DNA of 34,187 nt from Deinococcales bacterium (GTDB taxonomy: Bacteria > Deinococcota > Deinococci > Deinococcales > JAAFIG01). The stretch spans positions 1 to 34,187 of the forward strand of contig JAYWGM010000031.1 of NCBI GenBank assembly GCA_043778225.1. The letters are read 5' to 3'. The first letter of the stretch is position 1. The number at the start of each line of letters is the position of its first letter. A program made the translations under genes and the position numbers. Positions 184 through 34,151 of this stretch are shown here, in pieces. The notes beneath the pieces were generated by a model. It ran no database searches, was not told the DNA's origin, and saw nothing but the letters and a program-made list of their open reading frames with translations.

Positions 184-1536
184 ATGCGATTGCCTCAACA
201 ACTTCGGCTCTTTTTAGCAGTGGCGTTTGGCTTTCTCATCTCATGCTTTGCATTGGCGCAATCAGGTACGCAAATTCTTGCATACCTCAATGGTGAACCC
301 TTGACGACTTCTGAATTTGAGAATGCGTTTTCGCAAAACTCGACTGTTCAGGCATTGCGGGGAAATAAGTCTGCGGAAATCCAAAATGATTTGAAAGAAC
401 TTGTATTTCGCACAATTTTCATGCGGAAACTTATCGAGCAAAATTTGCGATACATTCGGGTAACAGATTTAGAATGGGAATCAGCGGTCAAAAAAAACCG
501 TCAACAACTTAATTTAAATAATGCCGAATTTGAAAAATACTTAGAGCGTTCTGGATTTACGACTGAATCATATCGCCAGCAGATTCTTCTCGATATTCGA
601 GTCCAACGATTTTCTAATCAGGTCACACAGAATTTGAGTTTTACGCAAGAAGAATTTGATTTTATCAAGAATTTAACGCCTGAAGATTACTTAACCACTT
701 CAAGTCTGGCTGAATTACGCAAACAACTGCTGAGCTTAAAGTCAAATGCAGAATTAGAGGCTTGGCTGATTCGTCTCGAGGCAACAAGTGATATTCAGTA
801 TCCTGAGCAAAGCACATCGTATTCAAAAAACAAGATTGTTGCTACCGTAAATAACAAGACAATACGAAATAATGAAGTGTTAAACACTGTGTACGCCTTT
901 CCAAATTTACTCAGTTACATGGATTTGGGAAAATATAAAAATATCATCACTGAAAAACTGATAGATCAACAAATTACCAGTCAAAGAGCTATTGAATTGG
1001 ATTTACCTTTTGTTGGATCGGAGGCAGAAATTCATTACCAGGTGTTGAATTATGAAAGCCGAAATGCAAGTGTAAGTGACAAAAAAGCTGAAGAGTATTA
1101 CAAGCAGAACTTATCATCATTTCAAACACCTGCGATGGCTCGAGTTCAATCTGTTACTTTTCCAAACCTGAAACAAGCTGAAAGTTTTCGAGCCATCCTT
1201 TTAAGAAACGGTGATGTATCCCGTACTGCAAGACAATTCAATGCACCTGTATCAGAGCATAATCAGACTCGACCACAAGACTGGGCATTGGAATCTCGAA
1301 ATGCTATTTTTGTTAAACCAACTCAGAAAATAGGTAAGGTTGAAGTATCCATGGTCACTAAAGTCAGCAACCAATTTATTGTCTATGTGATTCGTGACCG
1401 TAAAAAAGCCATCAAGCCAAGTTTCTTACAAGCTCGACCGCAAATTCAGAAAATCTTAATGCCCTTAGCTCGAGTAGAAATGCAAGTGGCTTGGCTTTCA
1501 AAAGCTCGAGCCAGCGCAGAAATCAAAGTATTTTAA
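184..1536 (+). CDS. Exported SurA/PrsA-like foldase (SurA N-terminal domains plus degenerate PpiC-like region)
   Basis: Signal peptide (..CFALAQ); two 'LAYLNGEPLT'/'VATVNNKTI' SurA-N starts; 'EEYYKQNLSSFQTPAMARVQ' and 'PSFLQARPQI..WLSKARASAEIK' PrsA/SurA-type segments; visibly more AT-rich than neighbours. Confidence 0.7.
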   Translation: MRLPQQLRLFLAVAFGFLISCFALAQSGTQILAYLNGEPLTTSEFENAFSQNSTVQALRGNKSAEIQNDLKELVFRTIFMRKLIEQNLRYIRVTDLEWESAVKKNRQQLNLNNAEFEKYLERSGFTTESYRQQILLDIRVQRFSNQVTQNLSFTQEEFDFIKNLTPEDYLTTSSLAELRKQLLSLKSNAELEAWLIRLEATSDIQYPEQSTSYSKNKIVATVNNKTIRNNEVLNTVYAFPNLLSYMDLGKYKNIITEKLIDQQITSQRAIELDLPFVGSEAEIHYQVLNYESRNASVSDKKAEEYYKQNLSSFQTPAMARVQSVTFPNLKQAESFRAILLRNGDVSRTARQFNAPVSEHNQTRPQDWALESRNAIFVKPTQKIGKVEVSMVTKVSNQFIVYVIRDRKKAIKPSFLQARPQIQKILMPLARVEMQVAWLSKARASAEIKVF

Positions 1537-1561
1537 TAAAATCAAAGCGGAAAACCCGTAC

Positions 1562-3061
1562 TTAGACCAATCCATAAAGCCCACTAAATTTGCGCTCGAG
1601 ATACCCAAGATACGGTTTGGCTGTTAAAGCCTGTCCTGTGGAACGGACTATCAGTTCTGGTGGTAAGTACGTTTTGCCGTGGCGCAGCACCGCATGGGTC
1701 AGCCATTGCAAAAGCGGTTTATATTCGCCCCGAGCAAACATGGCGTTTAAGTCGCCCATTTGTGAACCAGCTTTTTCAAAGAGTTGGACACTTAAAATGT
1801 TGCCAAGGCTGTAGGTTGGAAAGTAAGCAAAGAGCGCATTTGACCAGTGAATATCCTGCATGATGCCACTGGCATAGTCGGGTGGCGTAATCCCAAGGTA
1901 TTCTTGCATCTTGGCGTTCCAGGCTTCGGGCAAGTCGGCAACTTTGAGTTTATCTTCAAAGACCGCTAACTCGAGTTCAAAGCGCAACATGATGTGCAAG
2001 TTGTAGGTCAGTTCGTCGGCTTCGACCCGAATAAAACTGGGCTTGACACGGTTGACCAATTTGTACATCGTGCTTGCGTCCACATCGTGCAGTGCATCTG
2101 GGAAATGTTTTTGGGCAATCGCAAACCAGTGCTGCCAAAAGCCATCGGAGCGTCCGACCAGGTTCTCCCACATTCGAGATTGGCTTTCGTGAGCGGTACT
2201 CCATGCGCCTCGAGCCAGTGGGGTGCGGCGCAAGTCATCGCTGGTGTTTTGTTCGTACATCGCATGACCCGATTCGTGCAGCGTGCCGTACAATGCCATT
2301 GGAAAATAATTGGGGTCAAAACGGGTGGTGATTCGCACATCATCTTTACCAAAACTGGTGGCGAACGGATGGGCGGTAATATCCAAACGCCCTCGAGTCA
2401 GGTCGTAACCGAAAGCCTGTGCCACCTCGAGCGCAAATGCACGTTGCGCCTCGGGTGGAAAATGCCGTGTTAAAACACTGTAATCGGTGGTTTCGCCAGC
2501 CGCCACGATTTTCTCGAGAAGCGGCACAGTAAAGGCGCGAACATCGGCAAACACAGTTTTAATATCCTCGGTCTTTAAGCCGGGGTCAAAATCCCAAAGC
2601 AGCGCATCGTATGGGTGCGTTTCAAAACCATAAAAATCTGCTGACCGACGTGCATAGTCAAACATTTTCTCGAGGTGCGGCTTAAAAGCAGTCCAATCGT
2701 TTTGATGGCGGGCTGCTTCCCAGACCGAACCAGACAGGCTTTTGGCGGCTGCAAATTCGGTCACAAAATCGGTTGGGAGTTTGGATTTACGATCCACTTC
2801 AAGGCGCAGTAAGCGCAGCAGCGCCCCATCTAAAGAATCGGCATTTTGCAGTGTTGGCTCGAGAAGCGCTAACAATTCTTGAATTCGTGGCGCAGTGTTC
2901 TTTTGGTGCAGCAAACGCGCCATGGTCGCCATTTGGTTGGCTCGAGATGCGGCTGCCCCTTTGGGCATTTGGGTTTCTTTATCCCAACTGACCAGTTGTG
3001 CCACAGCCGTTAAATCCGAGATTTCTGCCAGCAGGATTTTAAGTTCCTCGAGTTGATTCAT
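1562..3061 (-). CDS. Carboxypeptidase M32 (Taq-type metallocarboxypeptidase)
   Basis: HESGH (HEXXH), HPF, DVRITTR, HESQS, IRVEAD, QDIHW and YFPTY motifs. Confidence 0.96.
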   Translation of the reverse strand: MNQLEELKILLAEISDLTAVAQLVSWDKETQMPKGAAASRANQMATMARLLHQKNTAPRIQELLALLEPTLQNADSLDGALLRLLRLEVDRKSKLPTDFVTEFAAAKSLSGSVWEAARHQNDWTAFKPHLEKMFDYARRSADFYGFETHPYDALLWDFDPGLKTEDIKTVFADVRAFTVPLLEKIVAAGETTDYSVLTRHFPPEAQRAFALEVAQAFGYDLTRGRLDITAHPFATSFGKDDVRITTRFDPNYFPMALYGTLHESGHAMYEQNTSDDLRRTPLARGAWSTAHESQSRMWENLVGRSDGFWQHWFAIAQKHFPDALHDVDASTMYKLVNRVKPSFIRVEADELTYNLHIMLRFELELAVFEDKLKVADLPEAWNAKMQEYLGITPPDYASGIMQDIHWSNALFAYFPTYSLGNILSVQLFEKAGSQMGDLNAMFARGEYKPLLQWLTHAVLRHGKTYLPPELIVRSTGQALTAKPYLGYLERKFSGLYGLV

Positions 3062-3172
3062 GTTCGTTAGTTTACCGCAGCCGAATTGACAGGATGTCTA
3101 AAGCGTGAAAGTTGAGGGCTTGTCTAACTCTTTGTCTGCCAATCGGCTGTTTCTTACGTTAAACTATGCCCA

Positions 3173-5670
<2,498 letters not shown>

Positions 5671-5831
5671 TAATTCGCTCTTTTTTAGTGTCCTGCTCGA
5701 GTAGATTCTTATTTCTCGAGCAAACGCTGTTTTTTAACTTATCTGATTTTATCTTCTCGAGAACGCATTTTTTTTAGCTCTATTGCCAAATGTCTCTTGC
5801 TCGACTGCAAATTTATTTGAATCCTTCATAA

Positions 5832-5948
5832 TTCATGGGTTATTGAGGGAGTAGCCACCTCGAGCAGAGGTTTGCGTGGTCGTCAGTACGAATCTTGTTT
5901 TCTGGGGAAAGCAGCATTCCGGCGCGCATACAAGAGCGAGACTCATAA
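5832..5948 (+). ncRNA. yybP-ykoY (Mn2+-sensing) riboswitch
   Basis: Conserved segments GGGAGTAG, CGTCAGTAC, TCCGG and GCGAGAC in the expected order; ATGGGT/ACTCAT closing helix; lies directly upstream of a TerC/Alx gene, the canonical context. Confidence 0.85.
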
Positions 5949-5964
5949 GGAAAAGGGGTTTCTT

Positions 5965-6960
5965 ATGGAAAATGCCGTTGCCAATATCGTTGTGCCGCTC
6001 TGGGTTTGGGGCGCTTTTTTAGTCGGTGTGCTGGCGATGCTGGCGCTTGATTTAGGGGTTTTTAACCGTAAAGCCCATGTTGTGACTGCCAAGGAAGCCG
6101 CCATCTGGACAGCCGTCTGGGTCAGCCTTGGTTTAGCCTTTGCGGCGATTATTTTTGTCTGGCAGGGACAGCAAAAAGGCTTTGAATGGCTGACTGGCTA
6201 TGTGGTCGAGTATAGCTTGGCAGTGGATAATATTTTTGTCTTTGTTTTGGTTTTTGGCTACTTCAAAGTGCCGCCCGAGTACCGTCATCGGGTTTTGTTC
6301 TGGGGCATTTTGGGGGCGCTGGTAATGCGTGGCGCAATGATTGGTTTAGGGGCAACATTGATTAAAGAATTCCACTGGATTCTGATTTTCTTTGGCGTTT
6401 TTTTACTCTATACGGGTATCAAAATGCTGACCACCAAAGAGTCGGATGCCCATGTGGACATGGATAAAAATCCAGCCATTAAGCTCGCCAAGCGTTTTTT
6501 TAAGGTCACCGAGCATTACGATGGTCAAAAGTTTTTTACCATCCACAATGGGGTACGGATGGCAACCCCGCTTTTTTTGGTGCTGGTTTTTATCGAATTC
6601 ACCGATTTAATTTTTGCGGTGGACAGCATCCCAGCAATTTTTGCAATCACCACCGACCCGTTTATTGTCTTCACTTCTAACGTTATGGCAATTTTGGGCT
6701 TACGCAGTCTCTACTTTTTATTAGCCGATATTGTTGACCGCTTTGTTTACCTCAAGACTGGCTTGGCGGTTATCTTGAGTTTTGTTGGGGTCAAACTCCT
6801 GATGCCCGATGTTTCCAAATGGATTCTGGGCGAGAGCATCAAAATCCCAACCGCGCTTTCGCTGGGGGTGATTGTCAGTATCTTGGCAATCAGCGTCATC
6901 GCCAGCCTAATCAAAACCGCCAAGCGCCCAGACTCGAGTCTCGAGGAAAAAGAGGCTTAA
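5965..6960 (+). CDS. alx: TerC/Alx family metal homeostasis membrane protein
   Basis: EYSLAVDNIFVF, HRVLFWGILGALVMRG, FAVDSIPA, FTSNVMAILGLRSLYF; start moved to ATG 5965 (purine-rich RBS, downstream of the riboswitch) rather than 5872. Confidence 0.92.
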   Translation: MENAVANIVVPLWVWGAFLVGVLAMLALDLGVFNRKAHVVTAKEAAIWTAVWVSLGLAFAAIIFVWQGQQKGFEWLTGYVVEYSLAVDNIFVFVLVFGYFKVPPEYRHRVLFWGILGALVMRGAMIGLGATLIKEFHWILIFFGVFLLYTGIKMLTTKESDAHVDMDKNPAIKLAKRFFKVTEHYDGQKFFTIHNGVRMATPLFLVLVFIEFTDLIFAVDSIPAIFAITTDPFIVFTSNVMAILGLRSLYFLLADIVDRFVYLKTGLAVILSFVGVKLLMPDVSKWILGESIKIPTALSLGVIVSILAISVIASLIKTAKRPDSSLEEKEA

Positions 6961-6969
6961 CTTTAGGAA

Positions 6970-6995
6970 AGAGGCAGGGTTAAAACCTTGCCTCT
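6970..6995. terminator. Hairpin between convergent alx and fabF, likely terminator
   Basis: AGAGGCAGGGTT / AACCTTGCCTCT 12-bp stem with one G-T pair, overlapping the fabF stop codon. Confidence 0.65.
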
Positions 6996-8232
6996 AAACA
7001 AAGCGCTTAAAAACCGCCACCGCGTTTTGTCCACCAAAAGCATTGGAGTTTGAAATCGCGTACTCAACTTGTTGTTCTCGAGGAAAATTAGGAATGTAAT
7101 CCAAATCGAGTTCTGGGTCTGGGTCTATGTAGTTAATGGTTGGCGGCAAAATACCCGTGTGCAGGGCTTGCATCACGGCGATTGCTTCGATTGCCCCAGC
7201 TGCCCCGAGCAGGTGTCCGGTCATGGATTTGGTGCTGCTGGTGGCAAGTTTTTTGGCATGGTCGCCAAAGACCACTTTTACACCTTGGGTTTCTGCCAAG
7301 TCGTTCATCGGGGTGCTTGTGCCGTGCAGGTTGGCATAACCAATTTGGTCGGCATTGACTTTTGAATTCCGCAGGGCGCGTTCAATCGCCATCACATAGC
7401 CGCGTCCTTCGGGGGCTGGGGCAGTGATATGGAACGCATCGGCAGCCAAGCCAGCGCCCAGCATCTCGCCGTAAATTCGTGCGCCACGGGCGGTGGCGTG
7501 TTCGAGCGTCTCGAGAATCAAAACCCCAGCCCCTTCGCCCATCACAAAGCCATCTCGAGATTTGGTAAACGGACGGCTGGCGGTTTTTGGGTCATCGTTG
7601 CGGGTGGATAACGCTCCCATGTTGCCAAATGCCCCAATCGACAATGGTGTGACCGCCGCTTCTGCGCCGCCAACAATCATCACTTGGCAGTCGCCTCGGT
7701 TCAGGAAGTGGTAGGCATCATGCAGTGCCACAGTGCTGGTGCTGCAAGCCGTGACAATGCTGCTCGAGACTCCAGTGCTGCCATAACGAATCGCCACTTG
7801 CCCAGTTGCCATATTGGCAATCATCATTGGAATAAAAAATGGGCTGAGTCGGTCTGCGCCGCGTTCGACCATGATTCGGGTCTGATTCTCGAAGGTTTCC
7901 ATGCCACCAATGCCCGTACCAATTAAAGTACCGACTTCAGGACCTTCGAGTTGGCTCAGTTCTAGCCCCGCATCCAAGCGGGCAAGTTCGGCAGCCACAA
8001 GGGTCAGTTGGACATACCTATCCATGCGTTTAAGTTCTCGAGCCTCTAAGCCATAATCGGCAAAGTCTATGTTGACTTCGGCAGCAAAGTGACAACGCAA
8101 TTTGCTGGTGTCAAATTTTGTAATGTAGTCCACGCCACTTTTGCCAGCCATCTGGGCTGCTAAAAAAGCCTCTGCGCCAATGCCAATGGCAGTCACAGGT
8201 CCAAGTCCGGTAATTACAACACGATGCGCCAT
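6994..8232 (-). CDS. fabF: 3-oxoacyl-ACP synthase II
   Basis: RVVITGLG, TACST catalytic Cys, HGTST and GHLLGAAG His motifs, SNAFGGQN. Confidence 0.95.
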   Translation of the reverse strand: MAHRVVITGLGPVTAIGIGAEAFLAAQMAGKSGVDYITKFDTSKLRCHFAAEVNIDFADYGLEARELKRMDRYVQLTLVAAELARLDAGLELSQLEGPEVGTLIGTGIGGMETFENQTRIMVERGADRLSPFFIPMMIANMATGQVAIRYGSTGVSSSIVTACSTSTVALHDAYHFLNRGDCQVMIVGGAEAAVTPLSIGAFGNMGALSTRNDDPKTASRPFTKSRDGFVMGEGAGVLILETLEHATARGARIYGEMLGAGLAADAFHITAPAPEGRGYVMAIERALRNSKVNADQIGYANLHGTSTPMNDLAETQGVKVVFGDHAKKLATSSTKSMTGHLLGAAGAIEAIAVMQALHTGILPPTINYIDPDPELDLDYIPNFPREQQVEYAISNSNAFGGQNAVAVFKRFV

Positions 8233-8263
8233 AAAAGGCAGTCTACCCGATGTGCCACAAAAA

Positions 8264-8746
8264 TTATACTTGACTCGAGCTTGCGGGCGGAATCAGTACC
8301 GTTTCTTGGACAATAAAGCCGTTTTGCAAAGCTGTTTTTGCCCAGTGTTGTGCCGACTCGAGGTTGTGGTCGCGGTAATTACCACATTCAAGCTCTGACA
8401 CACCCGGAATCCGAACCACATCAGCCACCGAAAGCAGGGTTTGCTCGAGTGCGGTTTTAACTTCTGTGGCAGCAACCTCGCCTTCGTGAACCAAGTAAAA
8501 ACCGGTGCGGCAACCCATCGGCGAAAGGTCAATCACACCGCTCAGGTGGTCGCGCAGACCGCCAGCCAGCAGATGTTCTAAGGTGTGCATTGCCCCAGTC
8601 TCGAGTGCGCCTTGGTTGGGTTGGGCGAGGCGCAAATCGAATTTGGTGATGATGTCGCCGTGCTTGGTGGTGTGCCGTCCAGCCAAGCGCACATAGGGAG
8701 CGCGAACTCGAGTGTGGTCGAGGTTAAAAGATTCAACGTTTGCCAT
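8264..8746 (-). CDS. luxS: S-ribosylhomocysteine lyase
   Basis: VESFNLDHT, HTLEH, SPMGCRTGFY, CGNY..H. Confidence 0.97.
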   Translation of the reverse strand: MANVESFNLDHTRVRAPYVRLAGRHTTKHGDIITKFDLRLAQPNQGALETGAMHTLEHLLAGGLRDHLSGVIDLSPMGCRTGFYLVHEGEVAATEVKTALEQTLLSVADVVRIPGVSELECGNYRDHNLESAQHWAKTALQNGFIVQETVLIPPASSSQV

Positions 8747-8749
8747 GAC

Positions 8750-9625
8750 CTAGGATACACCCTTTTGCCACATATCGGTTTTGGGCTTGCGGCGTGGATT
8801 TAAGAACCACTCAAGCATCGCTGGGAAACGTTTGCGCCATTCGTGTTCGGCATGAATACCAGTTGTGTCCTCGAGAAAGACCAAATCGTAGCAGCCTTGC
8901 GAAACCAGCATCCCCGCAATTTTTCGATTGTCCTCGAGATACGATTGACTGTCTTTGCTCTGTCCACCCTCGAGATGCCCGCAATCCATATAAATACGGG
9001 CGTTTGGGGCGATATGGCTTTGGACATAGGGCAACAATCCAGACCGTCCGACCCAAAAAGCACTCGAGAAACAACCCGCAAAACCAAACACATCTGGGGC
9101 TTCGAGCAGGGCATACAAGCTCATGATGCCACCCATGCTGCTGCCCGCGATGCCCGTAAATCTGGGGGCGGTCAGGGTGCGAAAACTCAAATCCACAAGC
9201 GGCTTAACGACTTCAATCAGATAATCGAGGTATTCGTGGGCGCGTCCACCAGCCCCACCGCTGATGCCGGGCAATTTTATTTTGGCTTCAAACCACGGTC
9301 CATATTCGTCAATTCGTGCCACGCCAGCATTTGGCACTGCCACGATAATGCACTCGAGTCCACGTTTGGCTAAGCGCTCGGCGGCTTCGTCGGCTGCCCA
9401 CTCGCCCGAGTAACTGGTTTTTTTATCAAAACAATTTTGTCCGTCGTGCATATACAAGACTGGATAATGGGCGGTTTTGATTTTGCTATAACTCGGCGGC
9501 AAATACACCAAGATGTCTCGAGCCGCGACTGTTCCGCCAGCTACTTTGCGTTTGACCCGAACTTGCCCGACCACCGAATGACCATCTTTATTGGGGTAAG
9601 CCCGTTCGTAGGCAATCCAACTCAT
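8750..9625 (-). CDS. Alpha/beta hydrolase (putative esterase family)
   Basis: VYLPPSY, YPVLYMHDGQN, GSSMGG nucleophile elbow, C-terminal H.E..W. Confidence 0.88.
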   Translation of the reverse strand: MSWIAYERAYPNKDGHSVVGQVRVKRKVAGGTVAARDILVYLPPSYSKIKTAHYPVLYMHDGQNCFDKKTSYSGEWAADEAAERLAKRGLECIIVAVPNAGVARIDEYGPWFEAKIKLPGISGGAGGRAHEYLDYLIEVVKPLVDLSFRTLTAPRFTGIAGSSMGGIMSLYALLEAPDVFGFAGCFSSAFWVGRSGLLPYVQSHIAPNARIYMDCGHLEGGQSKDSQSYLEDNRKIAGMLVSQGCYDLVFLEDTTGIHAEHEWRKRFPAMLEWFLNPRRKPKTDMWQKGVS

Positions 9626-9675
9626 ACAAACCTCGAGCCAAAAAATAATAGACCTCTTAGATAAATAAATTCTGT

Positions 9676-9762
9676 CTCTGAAAGCAGGGTAATGACAAGC
9701 ATCACCCCTACAGAAAAACGATTTTTGTAGGGTGCGAACCTTGTGTTCGCCCCGCTAAAAAT
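9676..9762. repeat. GTAG-family REP doublet (REPIN-like), uninterrupted allele
   Basis: Inverted REP AGCAGGGTAATGACAAGCATCACCCCTAC (9683-9711) and REP GTAGGGTGCGAACCTTGTGTTCGCCCCGCT (9727-9756); homologous to the reverse complement of 33370-33510. Confidence 0.8.
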
Positions 9763-9844
9763 GAACGATTTGGACTTATGTAAGAAGTCTAATTGCTTAA
9801 ATCGAAACAACATGACTCGAATCATAACTGGTTAAACTAGGTCT

Positions 9845-12826
9845 ATGTGGCAATTAACGATTTCGCAACGCTTACGGCTACTCGAGCGACGAATGCTTGA
9901 ACTCTCGGCATGGCGCAATGCGCTTGAAGTTCCAATCCTCGAGTGGAGCATCCAACCACCCTTACAAGCTGCCCGTCCGATTCGTCTGGGCGAGCCTTGG
10001 GGCTTTTCTGATGGTACAGATGGCTACAACACCCACACACAGGGCGCGGTGCGTTTTGAAACCAATTTGCTCGTGCCGCCAGCTTTGGCGGGTTTTCCAG
10101 TCGAACTCGAGCTTGACTTTGGCGGCGAGGGCTTTCTGGAGATTATCGGCTCGGGTGGCACAATTTTTCGTGGCGGCTTAAATCCATTCCATAGAGCCTT
10201 TGTATTACTCGAGCAGGCGGCTGGACTCGAGCCATTTCAAATTAAGCTCGAGGTTGTGCCAAAAGGTTTATTTGGCGCAAGAAACGAGACCCCAAGCCTC
10301 AGTCGAGCGCATTTGGTAGCGCCACACCTCGAGATTCGGGAGTTTTTAACCGACCTTGAAACGCTGCATCAGGTGGCGGTAGCGCTCGATACCCACGAGG
10401 TTGTGCCACATTTATTAGCGGCTGCCGAAGATGTTTTTGAGCATTTAGTCTGGACCAGCAATGCTACCGATTACCTCTCGAGGTTAATGCACGGTACGCT
10501 CGGTACACCATTCGAGCGCAGTATTTTATGGAGCTTGCCAAGTCTGCCAGCCCTTAAACCGCTCGAGTCAGACTGGCTTTTGGGGATTGTGGCGGCTCGA
10601 GGAGAGTTAGCGATTCATCTCGAGAAAATTGCCAGTTTATACCCAGCCCAAGGCAATTTGGCGCTGACTGGTCATGCCCATATAGACTTAGCTTGGCTCT
10701 GGACTATTTCCGAAACGCGGCGCAAAATTCAGCGCACTTTTGGCACAGTGCTGGAATTGATGAAGCGCTATCCAGATTTTACTTTTAACCAGTCGAGCGC
10801 CCAAGCCTATGCGTGGCTCGAGCAAGACGACCCTGCGATGTTCCAAGAAATTGTGGCTCGAGTCCATGAAGGGCGCTGGGAAGCAATTGGTGGGATGTGG
10901 GTTGAACCCGATGGGCAAATGCTGCATGGCGAATCTTGGGTACGGCAAATTCTGTATGGGCAAAGCTACTTCCTCGAGAAATTTGGGCGCACTTCAGAAG
11001 CGGCGTGGTTGCCAGACACTTTTGGTTTTAACCCGCAATTGCCACAACTGCTGCGTTTGGGCGGCATGGATAAGTTTTTTACCACCAAATTGCGCTGGAA
11101 TGAAACCAGTCTTTTTCCTCACGATTTATTTATTTGGTCTGGCTTGGATGGCTCAACAGTCTTGGCGCATTGCTTTTGGAACAAGTTCGATAGTTATAAC
11201 GCGCTGCTTGACCCAAAAAGTATTCTCGGGACATGGCAGAATTTTATCGGTAAAGCCAATAAAGCGTGGCTCAAGCACCCAAACCCACCACGGAGTTTAT
11301 TGTCCTTTGGCTATGGCGACGGTGGCGGTGGTCCAAGCCGTGAACACCTTGAGGGTTACGCGAGGCTGCAAAACTATCCAGCCATGCCCAAGCTCGAGAT
11401 GACTCGAGTGGACGATTTTTTTGGCATACTACCGACCGATTTACCTGTTTGGCACGGCGAAATGTATTTAGAACTGCACCGTGCCACCTTAACCACCCAA
11501 GCCAAAATTAAAAAACTGCACCGAGCGCTTGAACACCGTTTGCTCGAGAGCGAAATATGCTGGTCTTTGGCGTGGCTCGAGGGGGAAAGCTACCCAACAG
11601 CCCAACTCGAGCGGCTTTGGAAAACGCTTTTGCTGCATCAGTTCCACGATATTCTGCCCGGCTCGAGCATCCGCCAAGTTGTCGAAGATGCCGAAGCTGC
11701 GCTCGAGTCGGCATTGCAAGAAACTGTTGACTTACAAAAGGCTGCGCCAAAAAATGGGCAATTGCGTAGCGCACTCGAGCAAACACAAGCCGACCTGAAA
11801 GAAGTCAGTCAGACCCAAGTTCAGGTGCAAGCCTTGCCCGGTGGTTCATACATCCTCGACTCGAGTTCTTGCCAAGCCACGATTAGCCCAAGCGGTTGGC
11901 TGACCTCTTTCAAAGACCAATACGGCACAGAATTTTTGGCTGCACCTGTGGTTTTGTCATCGCAGCACGATGTCCCCAGAGAATGGGAGGCGTGGGACAT
12001 CAACCCAGCCCAGACCATGCCGCTCGAGAGCCGTGTCGAGATAACCAAGCTCGAGTCTGGTGTGCAAGTAAAACATTACTGGCGCGATTCGATTTTTACC
12101 CAAGATTACCACCTCGAGTCTGGGCGTTTGGTGGTCAAGAATCATGTCTTATGGCAAGAAAAACGGGTTTTGATTCGTGTTGAATTTCCACTAACACTGC
12201 ACATTCAACAAGCCTATTTTGAAAATGCTTTTGGGGCAGTGCAACGCCAAACCTACGCCAACACCGCCAGCCAAGCCGCCGCTTTTGAAGTTGCGGCGCA
12301 CCGTTTTGTACTACTCGAGTCTGCCAACAAAAACTTGGCACTGCTGAACGACTGCAAATATGGTTTTGCAATCAACAATAATTTACTCACGATGTCTTTG
12401 CTGCGCGGTTCGTTGTATCCCGACCCAATGGCGGACTTTGGCGAACATACTTTTAGCTATGCCTTGGATTTTTTAGCCGACTGCAACCAAGCTGATTTTG
12501 TACCACTCGAGCAAGCCACTCGGGCTGGAATCGAATTTAACAGCCCCATTTTGGCGGCGGCTCAGCACTTGTTCTCGAGCCACCTGATACTGAGCGCTGT
12601 ACACAAAAGCCAAACCGACGATGCTTTGATTGTGCGTTTTTACGAGTCTTGTGGGCGGACAAAAATAGAAAAACTTGATTTTACGCCATTTGCGCCAATC
12701 CAAATCACTCAAGTGGATTTCTTAGAGCGCCAATTGGAGGTGCTTGAATTGACCCAAGGGGTTGTGTCTTTGCCTGTCAAGCCTTTTGAGGTGATTACCC
12801 TCAAGCTGTACTTGGGAAAACAATAG
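9845..12826 (+). CDS. GH38 alpha-mannosidase
   Basis: GHAHIDLAWLW, GGMWVEPD, WLPDTFG nucleophile, GYGDGGGGP, GEMYLELHR, QFHDILPGSS, LLNDCKYG. Confidence 0.95.
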   Translation: MWQLTISQRLRLLERRMLELSAWRNALEVPILEWSIQPPLQAARPIRLGEPWGFSDGTDGYNTHTQGAVRFETNLLVPPALAGFPVELELDFGGEGFLEIIGSGGTIFRGGLNPFHRAFVLLEQAAGLEPFQIKLEVVPKGLFGARNETPSLSRAHLVAPHLEIREFLTDLETLHQVAVALDTHEVVPHLLAAAEDVFEHLVWTSNATDYLSRLMHGTLGTPFERSILWSLPSLPALKPLESDWLLGIVAARGELAIHLEKIASLYPAQGNLALTGHAHIDLAWLWTISETRRKIQRTFGTVLELMKRYPDFTFNQSSAQAYAWLEQDDPAMFQEIVARVHEGRWEAIGGMWVEPDGQMLHGESWVRQILYGQSYFLEKFGRTSEAAWLPDTFGFNPQLPQLLRLGGMDKFFTTKLRWNETSLFPHDLFIWSGLDGSTVLAHCFWNKFDSYNALLDPKSILGTWQNFIGKANKAWLKHPNPPRSLLSFGYGDGGGGPSREHLEGYARLQNYPAMPKLEMTRVDDFFGILPTDLPVWHGEMYLELHRATLTTQAKIKKLHRALEHRLLESEICWSLAWLEGESYPTAQLERLWKTLLLHQFHDILPGSSIRQVVEDAEAALESALQETVDLQKAAPKNGQLRSALEQTQADLKEVSQTQVQVQALPGGSYILDSSSCQATISPSGWLTSFKDQYGTEFLAAPVVLSSQHDVPREWEAWDINPAQTMPLESRVEITKLESGVQVKHYWRDSIFTQDYHLESGRLVVKNHVLWQEKRVLIRVEFPLTLHIQQAYFENAFGAVQRQTYANTASQAAAFEVAAHRFVLLESANKNLALLNDCKYGFAINNNLLTMSLLRGSLYPDPMADFGEHTFSYALDFLADCNQADFVPLEQATRAGIEFNSPILAAAQHLFSSHLILSAVHKSQTDDALIVRFYESCGRTKIEKLDFTPFAPIQITQVDFLERQLEVLELTQGVVSLPVKPFEVITLKLYLGKQ

Positions 12827-12844
12827 CCAGGATAGCCTGTGAAG

Positions 12845-12865
12845 TGTAGGGGCGAACCTCTGTGT
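12845..12865 (+). repeat. Truncated GTAG-family REP half
   Basis: TGTAGGGGCGAACCTCTGTGT matches the 5' arm of the REPs at 9727 and 33480(rc); the 3' arm is absent. Confidence 0.6.
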
Positions 12866-12909
12866 CATTGACTCCAACTTAATCAAGAAATTCGTGTGCA
12901 GCGCAAAAA

Positions 12910-13127: not shown

Positions 13128-13232
13128 AAAAACCAAGTGCTAGGTCATGGACTAGAAGATTAAGTTTATTGTTAGAAAAAGCAAAAACGATTAAGCCGAA
13201 GTACATCACCTCCGTGTTCTCACTGTCTTAGC

Positions 13233-16995: not shown

Positions 16996-17047
16996 CATCG
17001 AAAGTCTGAGCGCGTGCCTAGCATCGAAAGTCTGAGCGCGTGCCTAG
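16971..17047 (+). repeat. Tandem triplication (26-27 bp unit) of the polyprenyl synthase 3' end
   Basis: TCGAGAGTCTGAGCGCGTTGCCTAGCA / TCGAAAGTCTGAGCGCGTGCCTAGCA / TCGAAAGTCTGAGCGCGTGCCTAG. Confidence 0.93.
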
Positions 17048-17100
17048 AGTTCAGCCCAATTTCAGTTTTTGCCTCTACCCTTATTGTCGGAGGTCAGACA

Positions 17101-17601
17101 ATGGAATTATTACGTGGCTCAGAAGGACAAAAACGCTTTAGCGAGTTGGTCAAGGGTATTCGCTATGCAATGCTCACTACCACCTCGGACAATGGCAATT
17201 TACGCGCCAGACCGATGTTTACCCAAGATGTGGATTTTGATGGTGACATTTGGTTTTTTACCAATGCCGCAAGTGGTAAAGTCAACGAAATTAAAGCCGA
17301 TTCGCAAGTCAATGTCGCCTATGCCAAACCAGAGGCACAAATGTATCTTTCGGCTTCTGGCACAGCCAAAATGGTACGTGACCGCCTAAAAATTCACGAG
17401 CTGTGGAAGCCAGAATATAAAATGTATTTTCAAGCTGGCTTAGACGACCCCAATCTGGTTTTGTTGTGCGTCAGTGTGACCGAAGCTGAGTATTGGACTT
17501 CGGAGCATAATCCTGTGCTGCGTTTAATTGGTTTAGCCAAAGCGCTGGTCACCAAAGATGTCAGCCAATTGGGTCAGCAAGGCAAAATAGAAATCGGATA
17601 A
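17101..17601 (+). CDS. Pyridoxamine 5'-phosphate oxidase-like FMN-binding general stress protein
   Basis: AMLTT..G.LRARPM, DGDIWFFT, VNVAY, Y.S.SG.A, G.DDPNL.LL.V....AEYW; GGAGG RBS before ATG 17101. Confidence 0.88.
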   Translation: MELLRGSEGQKRFSELVKGIRYAMLTTTSDNGNLRARPMFTQDVDFDGDIWFFTNAASGKVNEIKADSQVNVAYAKPEAQMYLSASGTAKMVRDRLKIHELWKPEYKMYFQAGLDDPNLVLLCVSVTEAEYWTSEHNPVLRLIGLAKALVTKDVSQLGQQGKIEIG

Positions 17602-19857: not shown

Positions 19858-19871
19858 GGATTTGTGTAACG

Positions 19872-19967: not shown

Positions 19968-20095
19968 GACAATCTATTTTGCAACCCAGTCTGGTCTATT
20001 TTGTTGTCTCAAGAAAAGATTTTTTGTTTTTCAAAAAAATTGTTGTCGTTCTGGCTGCTCGAGGTTGTTGTTGGCTGTTCATTCGGAGGTTTATT

Positions 20096-21358
20096 GTGAA
20101 AAAACGCTACATGATGTTCGCTGGTTTGGCAGTCTTGCCATTGACCCTCGCCCTTGCTCAAGGTACAAAAACCGTCAGCATCCTTGGTGCTTTCGGCGGC
20201 GAAGAAGCCAAAACCTTTCAGGCTGTCATCAATGCCTTTGAAGCCAAAAATCCCGGCATCAAAATCAATTATGCCAGCAGTGCAGATTTCAATACCGTTT
20301 TGAATGTTCGTGTCCAAAGTGGCGATTACCCAGATATTACTGCCTTGCCACAACCGGGCGTGATGAAAGACTTGGCGGCTCAAGGCGTACTCGCACCCGT
20401 TGGTGCAAGCACTTTGGTTGCGTTGCAAAAAAACTATGCTCCAGCTTGGTCAGAGCTTGGGCGGGCTGCCGACAAAAAAGTTTACGGCGTTTTTCACCGT
20501 GTTAATGTCAAAGGTTTGGTCTTTTACAACAAGCCAGCCTTTGAAGCCGCCGGTTATAAAGTTCCAAAAACTTGGGTTGAATTACAAGCCATGACCAAAG
20601 CCATGGAAAGCTCCAAAGCCGCACCTTGGTGTGTTGGTATGGAATCTGGTGGCGCAACCGGTTGGGTTGCCACCGACTGGGTAGAAAACATCATGCTCCG
20701 TACCCAAGCCGTTGGTGTTTACGACAAGTGGATTCCGGGCGATCTGAATTTTGCTTCGCCACAAGTCAAAAATGCTTTCCAAATCATTGATGGTATCTGG
20801 AACAATCCTAAGCAAATCTACGGTGGTCGTGCCAACATTGCTGCCACCAACTTTATTCCATCGGCACAAGGTTTGTTCACCAGTCCAACCCAATGCTGGT
20901 TACATATGCAGGGTAGCTTTGCAACCTCATTCTTCCAAGACAGCATCCAAAAGAACCTCGATGCCAACGTTGGTGTGTTTGTCCTGCCGATGATCAACAC
21001 CAAGTTGCCACAAACAGCTTTGGTTGGCGGCGATCAATTTGTGATGTTCAAAGGCAAAAACCGCCCAGAAGTGCAAAAATTCATGGCGTTCCTCGCAACG
21101 GGCGCTTCTGCCGACCCTTGGATTAAAGCAGGCGGCGGCTTGTTCCCACACAAAGACCAAAACCTAAAACTTTACCCAACCAAGCTCGAGTCCGACTTTG
21201 CCAGCATTATTCTTGGCGCTAAAGCCGCTCGTTTTGATGCTTCGGATGCCATGCCAAGTGCTGTCAACCAAGCCTTCTGGAAAGGCACAACCGATTGGGT
21301 TACTGGCACAGATTTAGATACCGTTTTGAAGAACATTGACGCAGCTTACAAGAAGTAA
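20096..21358 (+). CDS. Sugar ABC transporter substrate-binding protein (AglE-like, alpha-glucoside/sucrose type)
   Basis: GGAGG RBS and GTG 20096; signal peptide; PD...PQPG, VKGLVFYN, WCVGMESGGATGW..TDWVE, RFDASD.MP..V. Confidence 0.9.
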   Translation: MKKRYMMFAGLAVLPLTLALAQGTKTVSILGAFGGEEAKTFQAVINAFEAKNPGIKINYASSADFNTVLNVRVQSGDYPDITALPQPGVMKDLAAQGVLAPVGASTLVALQKNYAPAWSELGRAADKKVYGVFHRVNVKGLVFYNKPAFEAAGYKVPKTWVELQAMTKAMESSKAAPWCVGMESGGATGWVATDWVENIMLRTQAVGVYDKWIPGDLNFASPQVKNAFQIIDGIWNNPKQIYGGRANIAATNFIPSAQGLFTSPTQCWLHMQGSFATSFFQDSIQKNLDANVGVFVLPMINTKLPQTALVGGDQFVMFKGKNRPEVQKFMAFLATGASADPWIKAGGGLFPHKDQNLKLYPTKLESDFASIILGAKAARFDASDAMPSAVNQAFWKGTTDWVTGTDLDTVLKNIDAAYKK

Positions 21359-22506: not shown

Positions 22507-22571
22507 GGGCAGGGTTAAAAGGGAAAAAGGTCAAGAGGTTCAACTTCGCTTTCTCTTTCAAGGGAGTTTAT

Positions 22572-23459
22572 ATGGTCGCGCAAAAAAAGAATCTCAGTTC
22601 GCAAATTGTGATTTATGGCATCCTGATTTTTTTAGGTTTACTCTGGACAGTCCCAACTTTTGGCTTGCTGGTGACCTCGTTTCGAGTGCCAGACGATACC
22701 TCGAGCAGTGGCTGGTGGGAGGTTTTTACCGAAGGCAAATTTAGTTTTACACTACAAAATTATACCGCAGTGCTGAGTCCGGGCGATGGGGCAACCAGCA
22801 ATACGGCTGCCACGATTAACCTCAATCAAGCAATTATCAACACAATCATCATGGCAGTGCCAAGCACCGTCATTCCCATTTTCTTGGCAGCCATTGCTGC
22901 CTATGCTTTTGCTTGGATGAATTTTCCGGGGCGCAAGTTGTTATTTATGGTGTTGGTGGCGTTGCTGGTTGTGCCTTTGCAAATGTCGTTGATTCCTATT
23001 TTGCGCGATTACCGTGGGCTGGGCTTAAATGGCACATTTTTAGGGGTCTGGTTAGCCAACACGGGCTTTGGTTTGCCACTGGCAACCTACTTACTTTATA
23101 ACTATATCGTTACACTGCCTCGGGAAGTCTTTGAATCGGCAGTCATGGACGGTGCGAGTCACCCAATGATGTTTACCAAGTTGGTCGTGCCGCTTTCGAT
23201 GCCCGCCTTTGCCTCGTTTGCGATTTTCCAGTTTTTATGGGTCTGGAATGGCGTGCTTATTCCTTTGGTCTTCTTAGGCGACGACCCAAGCCGCATTGTT
23301 TTACCGCAAAGGATTCTGCAAATGATTGGACAATACTCAACCAATTGGCAACTTTTAACGGCTGGGGCGTTTGTTTCGATGTTTATTCCATTGGTGGTTT
23401 TTATCGGTTTCCAGCAGTATTTTGTGCGCGGCTTATTGGCTGGGAGCGTAAAGGGCTAG
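22572..23459 (+). CDS. Sugar ABC transporter permease (AglG-like)
   Basis: EAA loop 'EVFESAVMDGA'; QFLWVWN; C-terminal QQYFVRGLLAGSVKG. Confidence 0.92.
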   Translation: MVAQKKNLSSQIVIYGILIFLGLLWTVPTFGLLVTSFRVPDDTSSSGWWEVFTEGKFSFTLQNYTAVLSPGDGATSNTAATINLNQAIINTIIMAVPSTVIPIFLAAIAAYAFAWMNFPGRKLLFMVLVALLVVPLQMSLIPILRDYRGLGLNGTFLGVWLANTGFGLPLATYLLYNYIVTLPREVFESAVMDGASHPMMFTKLVVPLSMPAFASFAIFQFLWVWNGVLIPLVFLGDDPSRIVLPQRILQMIGQYSTNWQLLTAGAFVSMFIPLVVFIGFQQYFVRGLLAGSVKG

Positions 23460-28932: not shown

Positions 28933-28968
28933 AACGCTGACCAGTTTACGCCTTTTATTCTCGAGTGT

Positions 28969-29030
28969 CTGATGGTCGCCTCGAGCGTTATACTGCCTGA
29001 TGGTAGCCTCGAGCGTTATACTGCCTGATG
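28969..29030 (+). repeat. 28-bp tandem duplication of the argR -10/start region
   Basis: CTGATGGTCGCCTCGAGCGTTATACTGC / CTGATGGTAGCCTCGAGCGTTATACTGC / CTGATG. Confidence 0.93.
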
Positions 29031-30270: not shown

Positions 30271-30621
30271 TCATTTTTTGTTCCTCTTTAGTTTTTGTGG
30301 CTTGCGATTCGCGGCGGCGACAGCCCCCATAATCCACGGTTCGAGTTGTTCCCAATCCTCGAGTATATCTTCTGGGGCGCGGTGGTAATTCATAGAAACA
30401 GTTTTCTGACTGGTTTCGTAACTGAATGGCTCGAGATTTGCATTTTTGAACATGGTTATGTTTTCAGAATCGGTTTTTAAGTACAGCACATCTTCGGCAA
30501 TTAAGCCCATCATGCGGTCTTGTACATACACGCCCCAGCCTCCGAACATACTTTTGCAACGGGCTTTTAAGGGCATTAACATTTCTTCGATAAACTGCAC
30601 AAAGGCTGGTTTGATTTTCAT
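30271..30621 (-). CDS. TfoX/Sxy N-terminal domain protein
   Basis: SMFGGWGVY, LYLK.D, PF.Y, M.Y...PE..LED. Confidence 0.85.
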   Translation of the reverse strand: MKIKPAFVQFIEEMLMPLKARCKSMFGGWGVYVQDRMMGLIAEDVLYLKTDSENITMFKNANLEPFSYETSQKTVSMNYHRAPEDILEDWEQLEPWIMGAVAAANRKPQKLKRNKK

Positions 30622-30977
30622 CTGAATCCTTCTTGCTTAAATTTTTGAAAACCCATTTCAGTCAGGGTCTCGAGTTCTGCTTGTAAGGCTGGCTCGAGTT
30701 TTTTGAAATTAAAACAGGATTTGCCCTGCATTCGTTTTCTTAAAGATTCAGATATGTTCTCGAGTAGTTCTGGGTAGGCATAGACCGCCATGAGGTAGTA
30801 AGAAACGTAGTTCTTTTTGATTTGTACACTACCAAAGTAACCCTGATAGCTGTCTTTGCGGGTATAATGCAGATTCAGATAATAGTTGTCTGGCTGGTCT
30901 TTTATCAGCACCAAGTGACCTTCGTATTTTTGCAGAATTTCTTTGAGGCTCGAGAAAATTGTTTGGAAGGTATCCAT
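30618..30977 (-). CDS. Conserved hypothetical protein (YdhG/DUF1801-like)
   Basis: KNYVSYYLM.VY..PELL..IS..L.KRMQGKSCFNFK pattern; ATGA overlap with the TfoX-domain gene. Confidence 0.65.
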   Translation of the reverse strand: MDTFQTIFSSLKEILQKYEGHLVLIKDQPDNYYLNLHYTRKDSYQGYFGSVQIKKNYVSYYLMAVYAYPELLENISESLRKRMQGKSCFNFKKLEPALQAELETLTEMGFQKFKQEGFR

Positions 30978-31094
30978 AGAACCCCTTGAGTTGGTTTACT
31001 TCTTAAATACTACCTTAAATTATGTTGAAAAACAAGTCTTAGTTAGGTTTTATGTTTTGGCTCGAGCATACATCCTACTTTCCTTCAGGAGTTT

Positions 31095-33510: not shown

Positions 33511-33562
33511 CTTTAAGTATCTCCCACCTACATTTTAGAATTTTCAAAAAGCGTCAATTCTG

Positions 33563-33592
33563 TTCTTGCTCGTAAAATAGCACCTCACGGGC
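33563..33592 (-). repeat. Diverged fifth copy of the micro-element core
   Basis: rc GCCCGTGAGGTGCTATTTTACGAGCAAGAA keeps GCCCG-NN-AGGTGC-N11-CAAGAA. Confidence 0.55.
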
Positions 33593-33686
33593 TACTCGCG
33601 CTCATTACGGCAGCAGATACGCTGTCCCTACTCCCGTTGGTCGGAAATGTTTTAGCGAAGAACTCTAAAACATTTCGGGGTTGTAC

Positions 33687-34151
33687 TTAGAATACAGGTG
33701 TAAAAACAAAACGGTCGGTTGCCCCACCACGTAAAACACAATCGGTATGCTCACCAAGATAACGTTTGTCCATGACGCTCTCGAGTGCGCCCCAGACTGC
33801 CCCAAGCGTAAACGTGCATTTGCGGCTCGAGCCTTGTGGTTCGTTGGCACTACAAACGGTCTCGAGGGTGTCAATAATAATTTGTTCGCCCTGAACACTT
33901 GCACCGACCACACGGCAAAGTTGTGTACCGGTTTTACCAAGCAGCCCATCCAATGCCTTCACCAGCACTTCGACAGGTGCTTTTGTGCCGACTAAGCCAG
34001 CTTGTTGCGCCACGGTATTGCCACGCACTTTACCAGCCCGAATAAAAACCACCGCCGCGCCATCTTCGCCCAAGGTATCTTCGACCCCGACAATGGCTGC
34101 CTTAAAGCAAATCAGGCTCATCATTTCGCCAAGTTCTGGTCTGACATTCAT
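33687..34151 (-). CDS. V4R-like (hydrocarbon-binding) domain protein
   Basis: G...G helix; E..CS, CTFTLGAVWGALE, H..CVLRG...D.F.F pattern; AAGGAG RBS. Confidence 0.7.
   Translation of the reverse strand: MNVRPELGEMMSLICFKAAIVGVEDTLGEDGAAVVFIRAGKVRGNTVAQQAGLVGTKAPVEVLVKALDGLLGKTGTQLCRVVGASVQGEQIIIDTLETVCSANEPQGSSRKCTFTLGAVWGALESVMDKRYLGEHTDCVLRGGATDRFVFTPVF

Follow-up and report, generated by a model that had tools for sequence, protein, structure and literature searches.

For thirty years, the highly iterated palindromes (HIPs) in the genomes of cyanobacteria have lacked an explanation. Other short words with a special place in bacterial genomes are the DNA uptake sequence (DUS) of Neisseria and the uptake signal sequence (USS) of Pasteurellaceae, which are 9-12 bp long, asymmetric and present about once per kb; Chi sites, which are read by RecBCD or AddAB and are short, over-represented, self-marking, asymmetric and orientation-skewed; and the words CCWGG and CTAG of E. 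coli, whose frequencies are shaped, modestly and at one position, by Dcm/Vsr very-short-patch repair. The hexamer CTCGAG, the subject of this analysis, is a classical type II restriction site (XhoI/PaeR7I). It was studied in a stretch of 34,187 bp (the window), contig C31 of the 4,029,277-bp assembly G000 of an uncultured Deinococcales bacterium (107 contigs, 48.7% guanine plus cytosine (GC), 89% complete). For this DNA, the initial annotation had proposed a HIP1-like system outside cyanobacteria, made or kept by a genome-wide process, and the results presented here support that proposal.

For HIP1 (GCGATCGC) and the alternate HIPs of cyanobacteria, observed/expected ratios (O/E) of 55-228 and densities of 300-2,700 per Mb are listed in Table 2 of PMC4390886. 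In the same paper (Elhai 2015), cognate methyltransferases (MTases) are described as co-extensive with HIPs and usually orphan. Positions of HIP1 were reported to be more conserved than those of control motifs, with a periodicity of 10-90 kb (Xu, Lawrence and Durand 2018; PMC5861425). HIP1 also raises transformation efficiency in Synechococcus PCC 7002 (Kamoku and Nielsen, bioRxiv 10.1101/2024.09.10.611283), and its abundance correlates with competence-pilus genes (PMC13756078).

The recount gave exactly 217 copies of CTCGAG in the window, the number estimated before, with a mean spacing of about 153 bp. The first copy lies at position 775 and the last at 33861-33866, in agreement with the span annotated. 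One hundred dinucleotide-preserving shuffles contained 4.6 copies on average and 10 at most; the enrichment claimed therefore stands, while the expectation of about 8 copies that had accompanied it was slightly high. In the whole genome 24,877 copies are present, one per 162 bp (about 6,170 per Mb or 6.2 per kb; zero-order O/E 26.7). CTCGAG is the commonest hexamer of G000, three times as frequent as any other, and the runners-up are overlaps of CTCGAG itself. The reversed word GAGCTC, which has the same composition, occurs 24 times. The enrichment is not confined to the contig of the window, since each of the 98 contigs of at least 5 kb carries 4.0-10.6 copies per kb and the word is abundant in the whole family; the 5-kb windows of lowest density are low-GC stretches with 34-39% GC.

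Bases flanking the word vary, as had been noted: genome-wide, each position from -10 to +10 holds at most 0.035 bit, and the unit is therefore the bare hexamer. Among the TCGA tetramers, 24,877 of 36,442 (68%) in the genome and 217 of 316 in the window are part of CTCGAG; for the glycoside hydrolase gene of family GH38 in the window, the 29 of 40 counted earlier proved exact. Within the 30 listed open reading frames (ORFs) of the window, the copies are distributed over frames 0, 1 and 2 as 122/37/42, and 17 copies are not wholly inside ORFs (3,205 non-ORF bases), which agrees with the earlier statement that every register and intergenic DNA are used. CTCGAG is thus a genuine highly iterated palindrome: the 27-fold enrichment concerns the exact hexamer and extends to every reading frame and to DNA without ORFs.

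The contribution of coding was assessed with 2,468 non-overlapping proxy genes, ORFs of at least 200 aa read from the first ATG and covering 3.07 of 4.03 Mb. They contain 18,750 copies, 11,141, 3,723 and 3,886 of them in frames 0, 1 and 2, respectively. In five replicates each, about 1,930 copies remained when synonymous codons were exchanged within genes and about 850 when the order of codons was randomized, corresponding to a 10-fold and a 22-fold excess in the real genes. Leu-Glu is spelled CTC-GAG in 11,141 of 16,067 cases, 34-fold more often than the 328 predicted from context-free codon use, and it is the most over-represented dipeptide (O/E 2.32; Glu-Leu, 0.97). A dicodon null (first-order codon Markov) preserves the copies in frame 0 by construction, so that frames 1 and 2, in which the word extends across three codons, are the informative ones; there the observed/expected values were 1.64 and 2.08. 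In frame 1, the codon following xCT-CGA starts with G in 93.5% of cases, compared to 34.2% otherwise, and in frame 2 AGx follows xxC-TCG in 64.7%, compared to 3.9% otherwise. The 154 kb in which no frame is open for 90 codons (42% GC) harbor 852 copies, 5.5 per kb, with an O/E of 33.7. The initial annotation had considered that the enrichment might vanish under a frame-aware dicodon model; it persists in frames 1 and 2, and the halves of the word are coupled. Since the synonymous, codon-order and dicodon nulls are all exceeded and ORF-free DNA is as dense in sites as coding DNA, codon or amino-acid bias offers no explanation, as had been supposed. CTCGAG overrides synonymous codon choice and alters amino acids.

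The arrangement of the sites relative to each other provided the main new result, an interference between neighbouring sites that is not described in the HIP1 passages of the literature cited above. Inter-site distances in G000 have a coefficient of variation of 1.00. Compared to the geometric expectation, pairs are rare below 20 bp (0.3-0.5), more frequent at 50-200 bp (1.22) and again fewer at 400-800 bp (0.78). The only periodicity detected for spacings up to 300 bp, a check proposed with the annotation, is that of 3 nt. No pair with starts 6 bp apart exists in the genome; such an overlap would create the avoided GAGCTC. The effect is most readily seen with amino acids held fixed, as the fraction of Leu-Glu spelled CTCGAG at a given distance of the nearest other site:

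6-12 bp: 0.29
12-20 bp: 0.47
20-30 bp: 0.63
30-50 bp: 0.68
50-75 bp: 0.73
75-100 bp: 0.77
100-300 bp: 0.78-0.80 (100-150 bp: 0.79)
beyond 500 bp (islands): 0.38 and below

The gradient was replicated in the other contexts, rising from 0.73 to 0.96 for Arg-CGA and from 0.55 to 0.87 for Ser-TCG. Among relatives, the fraction rose from 0.20 to 0.57 in G018 and, as a weak trend, from 0.57 to 0.83 in G020; in G360 the cases were too few. Two nearby palindromes could be disfavoured as potential hairpins, and 40 abundant non-palindromic hexamers paired with their reverse complements served as control. Their medians in the classes 7-20, 20-50 and 50-100 bp were 0.79 (interquartile range 0.74-0.86), 0.93 and 0.94, versus 0.45, 0.85 and 0.96 for CTCGAG pairs. 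Hairpin avoidance as the sole cause was rejected on the basis of the 7-20 bp class. Even where the protein sequence would permit a second site, one at less than about 20-30 bp is strongly disfavoured; this distance, over which the excess repulsion is robust, is the size of a protein footprint. A mutation bias acting independently at each site does not predict such interference.

Ortholog alignments, another check proposed beforehand, showed how stable individual sites are. The DNA of G000 is only about 79% identical to that of its congeners and synteny is broken; for the genes in positions 1-20000 of the window, orthologs of neighbours lie on different contigs in the congeners (G002-G007), with about 80% identity. 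Sites of the window were found at the same aligned position in five congeners in 51-68% of cases, versus 22-29% for control hexamers. Between G005 and the whole of G000, 672 sites were common, of 909 and 988, with controls at 31.5%, in 157 kb of alignment biased to conserved DNA by the BLAST thresholds. From one species to another, a given CTCGAG site is retained two to three times as well as a hexamer of another kind, and yet sites turn over. Among 73 site columns aligned in six congeners, 26 were occupied in one genome and four in all six; lineage-specific sites numbered 60 versus 17 lineage-specific losses, and at 46 of the 60 the peptide differs from that of the other genomes.

Across families, positions were shared in 15 of 44 cases between G000 and G141, in 9 of 52 between G000 and G020, and in 1 of 25 between G000 and G142, a genome poor in CTCGAG. 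Alignment yielded 75 positions at which G142 has no site but one or more of the rich genomes do, and at only nine of them does G142 encode the same peptide. Leu-Glu is conserved across families about as well as other dipeptides (0.42 vs 0.33; 0.38 vs 0.34). Position sharing was rejected as proof of inheritance, because with Leu-Glu ordinarily conserved and spelled CTCGAG in both genomes it reflects parallel pressure and not necessarily common descent.

An origin of sites by 6-bp insertions or footprints was also rejected, since 12 six-base gaps were present in 117 kb of alignment and CTCGAG in any rotation was not among them. What creates new sites is not insertion but substitution, which can affect each of the six positions. 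The 192 one-step differences at sites between G005 and G000 fall on positions 1/6, 2/5 and 3/4 as 71, 37 and 84, and 151 of them (79%) are transitions, versus 55% in the background. One-off neighbours of CTCGAG are not depleted (O/E 0.15-1.40); the transition neighbours are highest with 1.16-1.40, and CTTGAG/CTCAAG reach 1.40. The whole word is favoured and decays by ordinary mutation. For a polarised spectrum of gains, only three single-step events could be deduced, the congeners being too diverged.

The distribution of the word was surveyed in 364 genomes of the phylum (six families, 60 genera), including the unpublished G324, on which no claim rests, and the comparison proposed in the annotation was thereby extended to a graded series. 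All 19 genomes of the family of the window (five genera) carry about 4.3-6.8 copies per kb, family densities being approximate as genome sizes were rounded. Densities of about 1.4-3.5 per kb were found in genera g18, g19 and g21, where the reversed control GAGCTC is 3- to 40-fold lower; in family f5, several genera reach about 1.5-2.6 per kb, and their control counts are close to zero. In genus g8 (111 genomes, 26-1,372 copies each) and genus g22 (32 genomes, 1,455-2,803 copies each) the numbers are comparable to those of the control. Family f2 contains the rich genomes G020 (3.6 per kb), G140 (8.6 per kb) and G141 (7.0 per kb); G142, a congener of the latter two, has 0.3 per kb, an on/off contrast within one genus. 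In samples of 200-400 kb, CTCGAG was the top hexamer by O/E in G018 (14.7; 59% GC), G020 (10.8; 67.5% GC) and G360 (6.4; 57% GC), and at chance in G142 (1.0; 50% GC) and G021 (0.5; 70% GC). Relatives from three families, with 49 to 68% GC, thus have CTCGAG as their top hexamer, and in other genera of the phylum it is at chance level.

Other palindromes behave differently in G000: 36 of the 64 palindromic hexamers have an O/E of 0.12 or less. GGCGCC is present in three copies and GGGCCC, AGGCCT and GACGTC in one each, and the tetramers GGCC (131 copies, O/E 0.01) and GATC (O/E 0.13) are also affected. This purge is weaker (15 of 64) in G018, a family member from a different genus, and G020 (4 of 64), G142 and G021 show ordinary values; it is therefore a separate trait of the lineage of the window. 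A coupling of the purge to the enrichment was rejected, as G020 combines a CTCGAG O/E of 10.8 with 4 of 64 palindromes depleted and a GAGCTC O/E of 0.96. In IMG/VR, at least 80 viral loci of at least 4 kb were listed, 29 of them with at least two extra sites per kb; most of the rich loci among those listed are high in GC with equal GAGCTC. Host-like CTCGAG:GAGCTC ratios were seen among them in L276 (39:0), L284 (23:0), L289 (23:2) and L260 (18:1), which may belong to CTCGAG-rich hosts as phages or prophages.

Methylation of the word is documented in the phylum. The S3 Table of Blow et al. 2016 (PMC4752239) contains active type II N6-methyladenine (m6A) MTases of specificity cTcgAg for which no cognate endonuclease is listed: M.Mru1279II (Mrub_2385) of Meiothermus ruber, M.Mch9957IV (MeichDRAFT_0814) of Meiothermus chliarophilus and M.Mhy14884I (Marky_0034) of Marinithermus hydrothermalis, with 99.5%, 94.1% and 94.6% of CTCG(m6A)G sites detected as modified, respectively. 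The main text of that paper contains the word 'Meiothermus' 0 times, refers to CTCGAG only for Nocardia and mentions no over-representation. These enzymes share with G000 the word and the phylum, and their families are moderately enriched (1.4-3.5 per kb); their probable ortholog group, of the TaqI_C type and syntenic with an aminotransferase gene and gyrB, is absent from the family of the window. No paper reporting enrichment of CTCGAG in the phylum was found in the open-licence PMC literature and bioRxiv, and both 'CTCGAG' and 'Deinococc' are absent from Elhai 2015 (PMC4390886) and from Martinez-Guerrero and Delaye 2026 (PMC13756078).

In the single-contig genome G145 of family f3, a gene for a 447-aa protein with Eco57I and TaqI_C domains is located 34 kb in; by its position, our guess is that it is Marky_0034. 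Orthologs with 51-58% identity were detected in 32 of 32 genomes of g22 and two of two of g23, and in none of the family of the window. Comparison of loci from g22 (L441-L469), g23 (L444) and G145 (L431/L440) revealed a TaqI_C-type MTase gene between the aminotransferase gene and gyrB in all eight g22 loci examined, accompanied in three by a TaqI endonuclease gene. The aminotransferase neighbour is also present in G145, and the arrangement of the three genes was not found in G000. From these arrangements, the locus looks like an old restriction system that repeatedly turned into an orphan methylase. In the pooled g22 loci, TCGA has an O/E of 0.55, and CTCGAG with 2.6 is no higher than GAGCTC with 3.3. 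Methylation of CTCGAG is thus real in part of the phylum, and the documented enzymes do not explain the densest lineages.

G000 itself has about 20 DNA MTase genes. Its single TaqI_C-type MTase, encoded on contig C65, has 650 aa with a MerR-like N-terminus, followed by N6_Mtase/Eco57I and TaqI_C domains, the architecture of known TCGA/CTCGAG enzymes. The gene forms a two-gene unit (C65:13748-18727, locus L039; locus L040 in G005) with one for a 246-aa partner carrying a D..E-x-K motif. The partners from G000 and G005 share 87% identity, with neither a Pfam family nor a PDB relative; 3,996 related proteins with 64-74% identity occur in very different bacteria, all of them unnamed or 'hypothetical'. 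The 246-aa protein probably represents a widespread unnamed family of restriction endonucleases.

The search for an orphan CTCGAG MTase in the family, suggested in the annotation, yielded no group that varies with site density. A conserved MTase as driver was rejected for PF01555, PF00145, PF02086, PF02384, PF07669 and TaqI_C alike, as no group tracks the density; this negative covers ortholog groups, beside which non-orthologous MTases of equal specificity may exist. Eco57I-class and TaqI_C domains, profiled in 42 and 67 genomes, do not track the density either, and TaqI_C domains are present in g22 and g23. Vsr (PF03852) had no match in the 89%-complete G000, the control being positive in three genomes; the XhoI endonuclease family PF04555 also had no match in G000, with a control equally silent everywhere. 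RecC is absent from all 42 panel genomes. The AddAB-type nuclease domain PDDEXK_1 was not detected in G000, G018, G001 or G017; non-enriched genomes that contain it are G019, G050, G132, G137 and G143. A Chi-like signal of RecBCD or AddAB was rejected on these grounds. A further unit of a Dam-class MTase and a partner of about 370-400 aa is located in G011 (C63), G018 (C1:1609675-1611608) and G141 (C72/C592), at loci L112, L113, L107 and L115. It is 72-77% identical across two families whose ordinary orthologs are about 55-60% identical, which suggests recent horizontal transfer among CTCGAG-rich lineages.

The features of the window that relate to the distribution of sites are the following:

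775..33866, strand not applicable: all 217 CTCGAG copies (exact count versus shuffles)
9845..12826, plus strand: GH38 alpha-mannosidase gene, 29 copies, 9.7 per kb, frames 22/3/4 (Pfam and count)
5696..5864, strand not applicable: spacer preceding the TerC gene, four copies at 5696, 5715, 5756 and 5859 (Rfam without a family here)
28960..29013, strand not applicable: spacer preceding the ArgR gene, three copies at 28960, 28980 and 29008 (count)
30358..31066, strand not applicable: seven copies in a stretch without ORF of at least 150 aa, between racemase and AMP-binding genes (count)
6933..6945, strand not applicable: closest pair of sites in the window, starts 7 bp apart (count)
5865..6932, plus strand: second-longest gap without a site (1,074 bp), which coincides with the gene for the membrane protein TerC (Pfam and count)
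5872-6960, plus strand: TerC gene, two sites, 1.8 per kb (Pfam and count)
20064..21184, plus strand: longest site-free gap, 1,127 bp, inside a solute-binding-protein gene (Pfam and count)
21418-23459: ABC permease genes beside the solute-binding-protein gene, 1.1-2.8 per kb, GC 0.44-0.47 (Pfam and count)
17014..17601, plus strand: PNPOx-like gene, zero copies, within the gap 16970-17626 (Pfam and count)

Fewest sites are found in genes for membrane proteins (TerC, the two ABC permeases and a chromate transporter at 13233-14291), with 1.1-3.8 per kb versus 6-13 per kb in genes for soluble enzymes; a low local density therefore does not always indicate foreign DNA. A riboswitch carrying CTCGAG, which had also been annotated, was not recovered: Rfam gave no family at gathering score in the whole window, and none at E <= 1 in positions 5600-5950 upstream of the TerC gene.

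Two further observations concern the window. Copper type II ascorbate-dependent monooxygenases (PHM/DBH-like) are known mainly from animals; an ORF of 580 aa at 18115-19857 (plus strand) contains both domains of this enzyme (Pfam E 2.8e-11 and 4.5e-9). Spacers at 1-104, 9641-9794, 12846-13226 and 19922-19980 contain dispersed repeats of about 60-200 bp, many copies of which, with 80-96% identity, are scattered through the genomes of five congeners. This suggests a family resembling miniature inverted-repeat transposable elements (MITE) or repetitive extragenic palindromes (REP).

The data are consistent with a pressure that is weak but pervasive, favours the word as an intact duplex and brings diminishing returns where sites lie close together. 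None of the mechanisms suggested in the initial annotation (MTase-directed repair, a nucleoid protein, an uptake signal) is proven, and MTase-directed conversion is without gene-content support in the family. The interpretation we prefer, with a confidence somewhat short of even, is that CTCGAG is a HIP-type coverage signal at the DNA level, about one per 160 bp of own DNA, read by a symmetric protein. The word would be read as duplex DNA by a protein of two-fold symmetry. The pressure would consist of weak selection at each site, with a scaled strength of order 3, as estimated from the ratio of about 27:1 between sites and one-off neighbours. One site in every 100-200 bp or so would be selected for, with little gain from a second one within the same footprint. 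Most likely, the reader would be part of an adenine-methylation-linked system marking own DNA for repair, recombination or transformation, a role that is currently suggested for HIP1. Such a methylation-linked self-mark may be ranked first by analogy, because of HIP1 and because CTCG(m6A)G methylation is documented in three cultured relatives; it is the weakest step, because no conserved MTase was found in the family of the window.

Several points weigh against this interpretation. No candidate reader protein was identified. The coding results depend on gene calls by proxy, namely the 2,468 long ORFs described above. General hairpin avoidance accounts for part of the short-range repulsion, and pair counts beyond 50 bp show no repulsion (0.96 vs 0.94), so that the longer-range gradient derives from the Leu-Glu spelling measure alone. 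In a panel of 16 genomes, no ortholog group of ORFs with PF01555, PF00145, PF02086 or PF02384 occurred in more than three. TaqI_C is present in six of the 19 family genomes, in none of four from g18 and in none of 12 from f2, among them the rich G020, G140 and G141; the single-contig G018 is without the domain. The C65 MTase was rejected as driver, being an ordinary two-gene unit present in only G000, G005 and G007 of the 19 family genomes, and the probable Marinithermus-type MTase was rejected as a phylum-wide marker, as it occurs in all 32 g22 and both g23 genomes, which are non-enriched, and in none of the family.

A wider form of the coverage signal appears rather unlikely: a phylum-wide 'coverage code', in which a conserved symmetric DNA-binding machine needs a site every 100-200 bp or so, independently of MTases in the densest lineages. 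Selection would then have written about 9,000 extra Leu-Glu into the proteome, the word would decay to chance where the machine was switched off (G142, g8, g22), and Meiothermus and Marinithermus would carry a moderate form with an identified CTCGAG m6A methylase.

Deinococcus and Thermus are naturally competent, and CTCGAG could be an uptake or recombination-enhancing signal like DUS and USS, a role recently suggested for HIP1 as well. DNA pieces containing the word would then be preferred in uptake or integration, and it would spread without benefit to the cell. The genome-wide occurrence in coding and non-coding DNA, the side effects on the proteome, the weak pressure per site, the fast turnover and the scarcity of sites in low-GC islands favour such a transformational drive, and diminishing returns for a nearby second site would fit as well. 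However, genera g8 and g22, which we take to be classic transformable genera, lack the enrichment, and a 6-bp palindrome at 6 per kb is unlike the known uptake signals, with 9-12 bp, asymmetry and about one copy per kb. This drive is judged unlikely, even with the cyanobacterial parallels that HIP1 raises transformation of Synechococcus PCC 7002 (bioRxiv 10.1101/2024.09.10.611283) and that its abundance tracks competence-pilus genes (PMC13756078).

A functionless repair ratchet, in which methylation-directed or very-short-patch-like mismatch repair turns near-matches into CTCGAG, seems improbable. It has been proposed for HIPs, with which cognate MTases are co-extensive (Elhai 2015, PMC4390886), and CTCGAG m6A MTases with no endonuclease listed exist in three cultured Deinococcota (PMC4752239); the high share of transitions among the one-step differences is also in line with it. 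Against it stand the missing Vsr in G000 and the failure to find a conserved MTase. Moreover, one-off neighbours are undepleted, with the transition neighbours above expectation, and the differences are spread over all three symmetric positions with no dominant conversion step. From the neighbour counts, conversion at a single position would not yield a 27-fold enrichment of the whole word, and independent conversion at each site does not predict the interference.

It is very improbable that the enrichment is a by-product of restriction-modification, either a CTCGAG system of the XhoI/PaeR7I type or an escape from restriction; the numerous MTase genes and the purge of 36 of 64 palindromes could point in this direction, but restriction pressure depletes sites instead of enriching them 27-fold, and G020 shows purge and enrichment to be uncoupled. 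A compositional artefact (codon usage, Leu-Glu dipeptide, dinucleotide or dicodon bias) can practically be dismissed: 59% of the coding sites are in frame 0 as Leu-Glu and the maximal-order Markov O/E is only 1.16, a null that was discarded because its pentamer counts are dominated by CTCGAG itself, and against this stand the 10-fold (synonymous), 22-fold (codon order) and 34-fold (Leu-Glu) excesses, the O/E of 33.7 in ORF-free DNA, the coupling of the halves over three codons and the 24 copies of GAGCTC.

With a second, independent and denser case in another phylum, HIPs would cease to be a cyanobacterial oddity. New here are the graded distribution in the phylum, the interference between sites, the finding that neither MTase, Vsr, RecBCD, AddAB nor the purge varies with the density, and the link to published CTCG(m6A)G methylation. 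The on/off contrast within one genus and the graded series of 364 genomes permit phylogenetic profiling for the responsible genes, and the word is tied to cultured, genetically accessible relatives in which its m6A methylation is known. Should the phylum-wide code be true, the 30-year-old question of HIPs would become experimentally tractable outside cyanobacteria. The interference curve is a quantitative constraint on any mechanism. A signal at the DNA level here reshapes the proteome, with Leu-Glu as its most over-represented dipeptide. In practice, CTCGAG density flags native versus imported DNA in these genomes, and the word biases k-mer, codon-usage or binning statistics obtained from them.

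The systems described above each share traits with CTCGAG. Like Chi, CTCGAG is a short word over-represented in its own DNA, which in the case of Chi marks 'self' for a DNA-processing machine; it differs in being palindromic, and RecC was found in none of 42 genomes and AddAB-type domains are absent from G000, G018, G001 and G017. Dcm/Vsr repair provides the precedent of a bias tied to a methylase site that shifts oligomer frequencies genome-wide, but G000 is without Vsr, six positions are involved, the enrichment is 27-fold, and the deamination-type neighbours CTTGAG/CTCAAG are not depleted. With DUS and USS, whose accumulation is ascribed to biased transmission, CTCGAG has in common thousands of copies, dialects among relatives and a location inside genes with effects on peptides; in contrast to them it is palindromic, has only 6 bp and no conserved flanks, occurs about 6 times per kb and is not known to bias uptake. 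The likeness to HIP1 extends furthest: both are short GC-rich palindromes, hyper-abundant genome-wide in genic and intergenic DNA beyond what codon use explains, conserved in position above controls (51-74% vs 22-32% for CTCGAG), scarce in foreign DNA, and subject to lineage-specific 'dialects' and occasional loss inside a clade. CTCGAG has 6 bp and not 8, belongs to another phylum and is neither the word GCGATCGC nor a derivative of it; it is denser (about 6,170 vs 300-2,700 per Mb) at an O/E lower than that of the 8-mer, it clearly affects protein sequence (Leu-Glu O/E 2.3), and the family of the window has no co-extensive ortholog group of cognate MTases. CTCGAG works like a HIP, but it is not HIP1.

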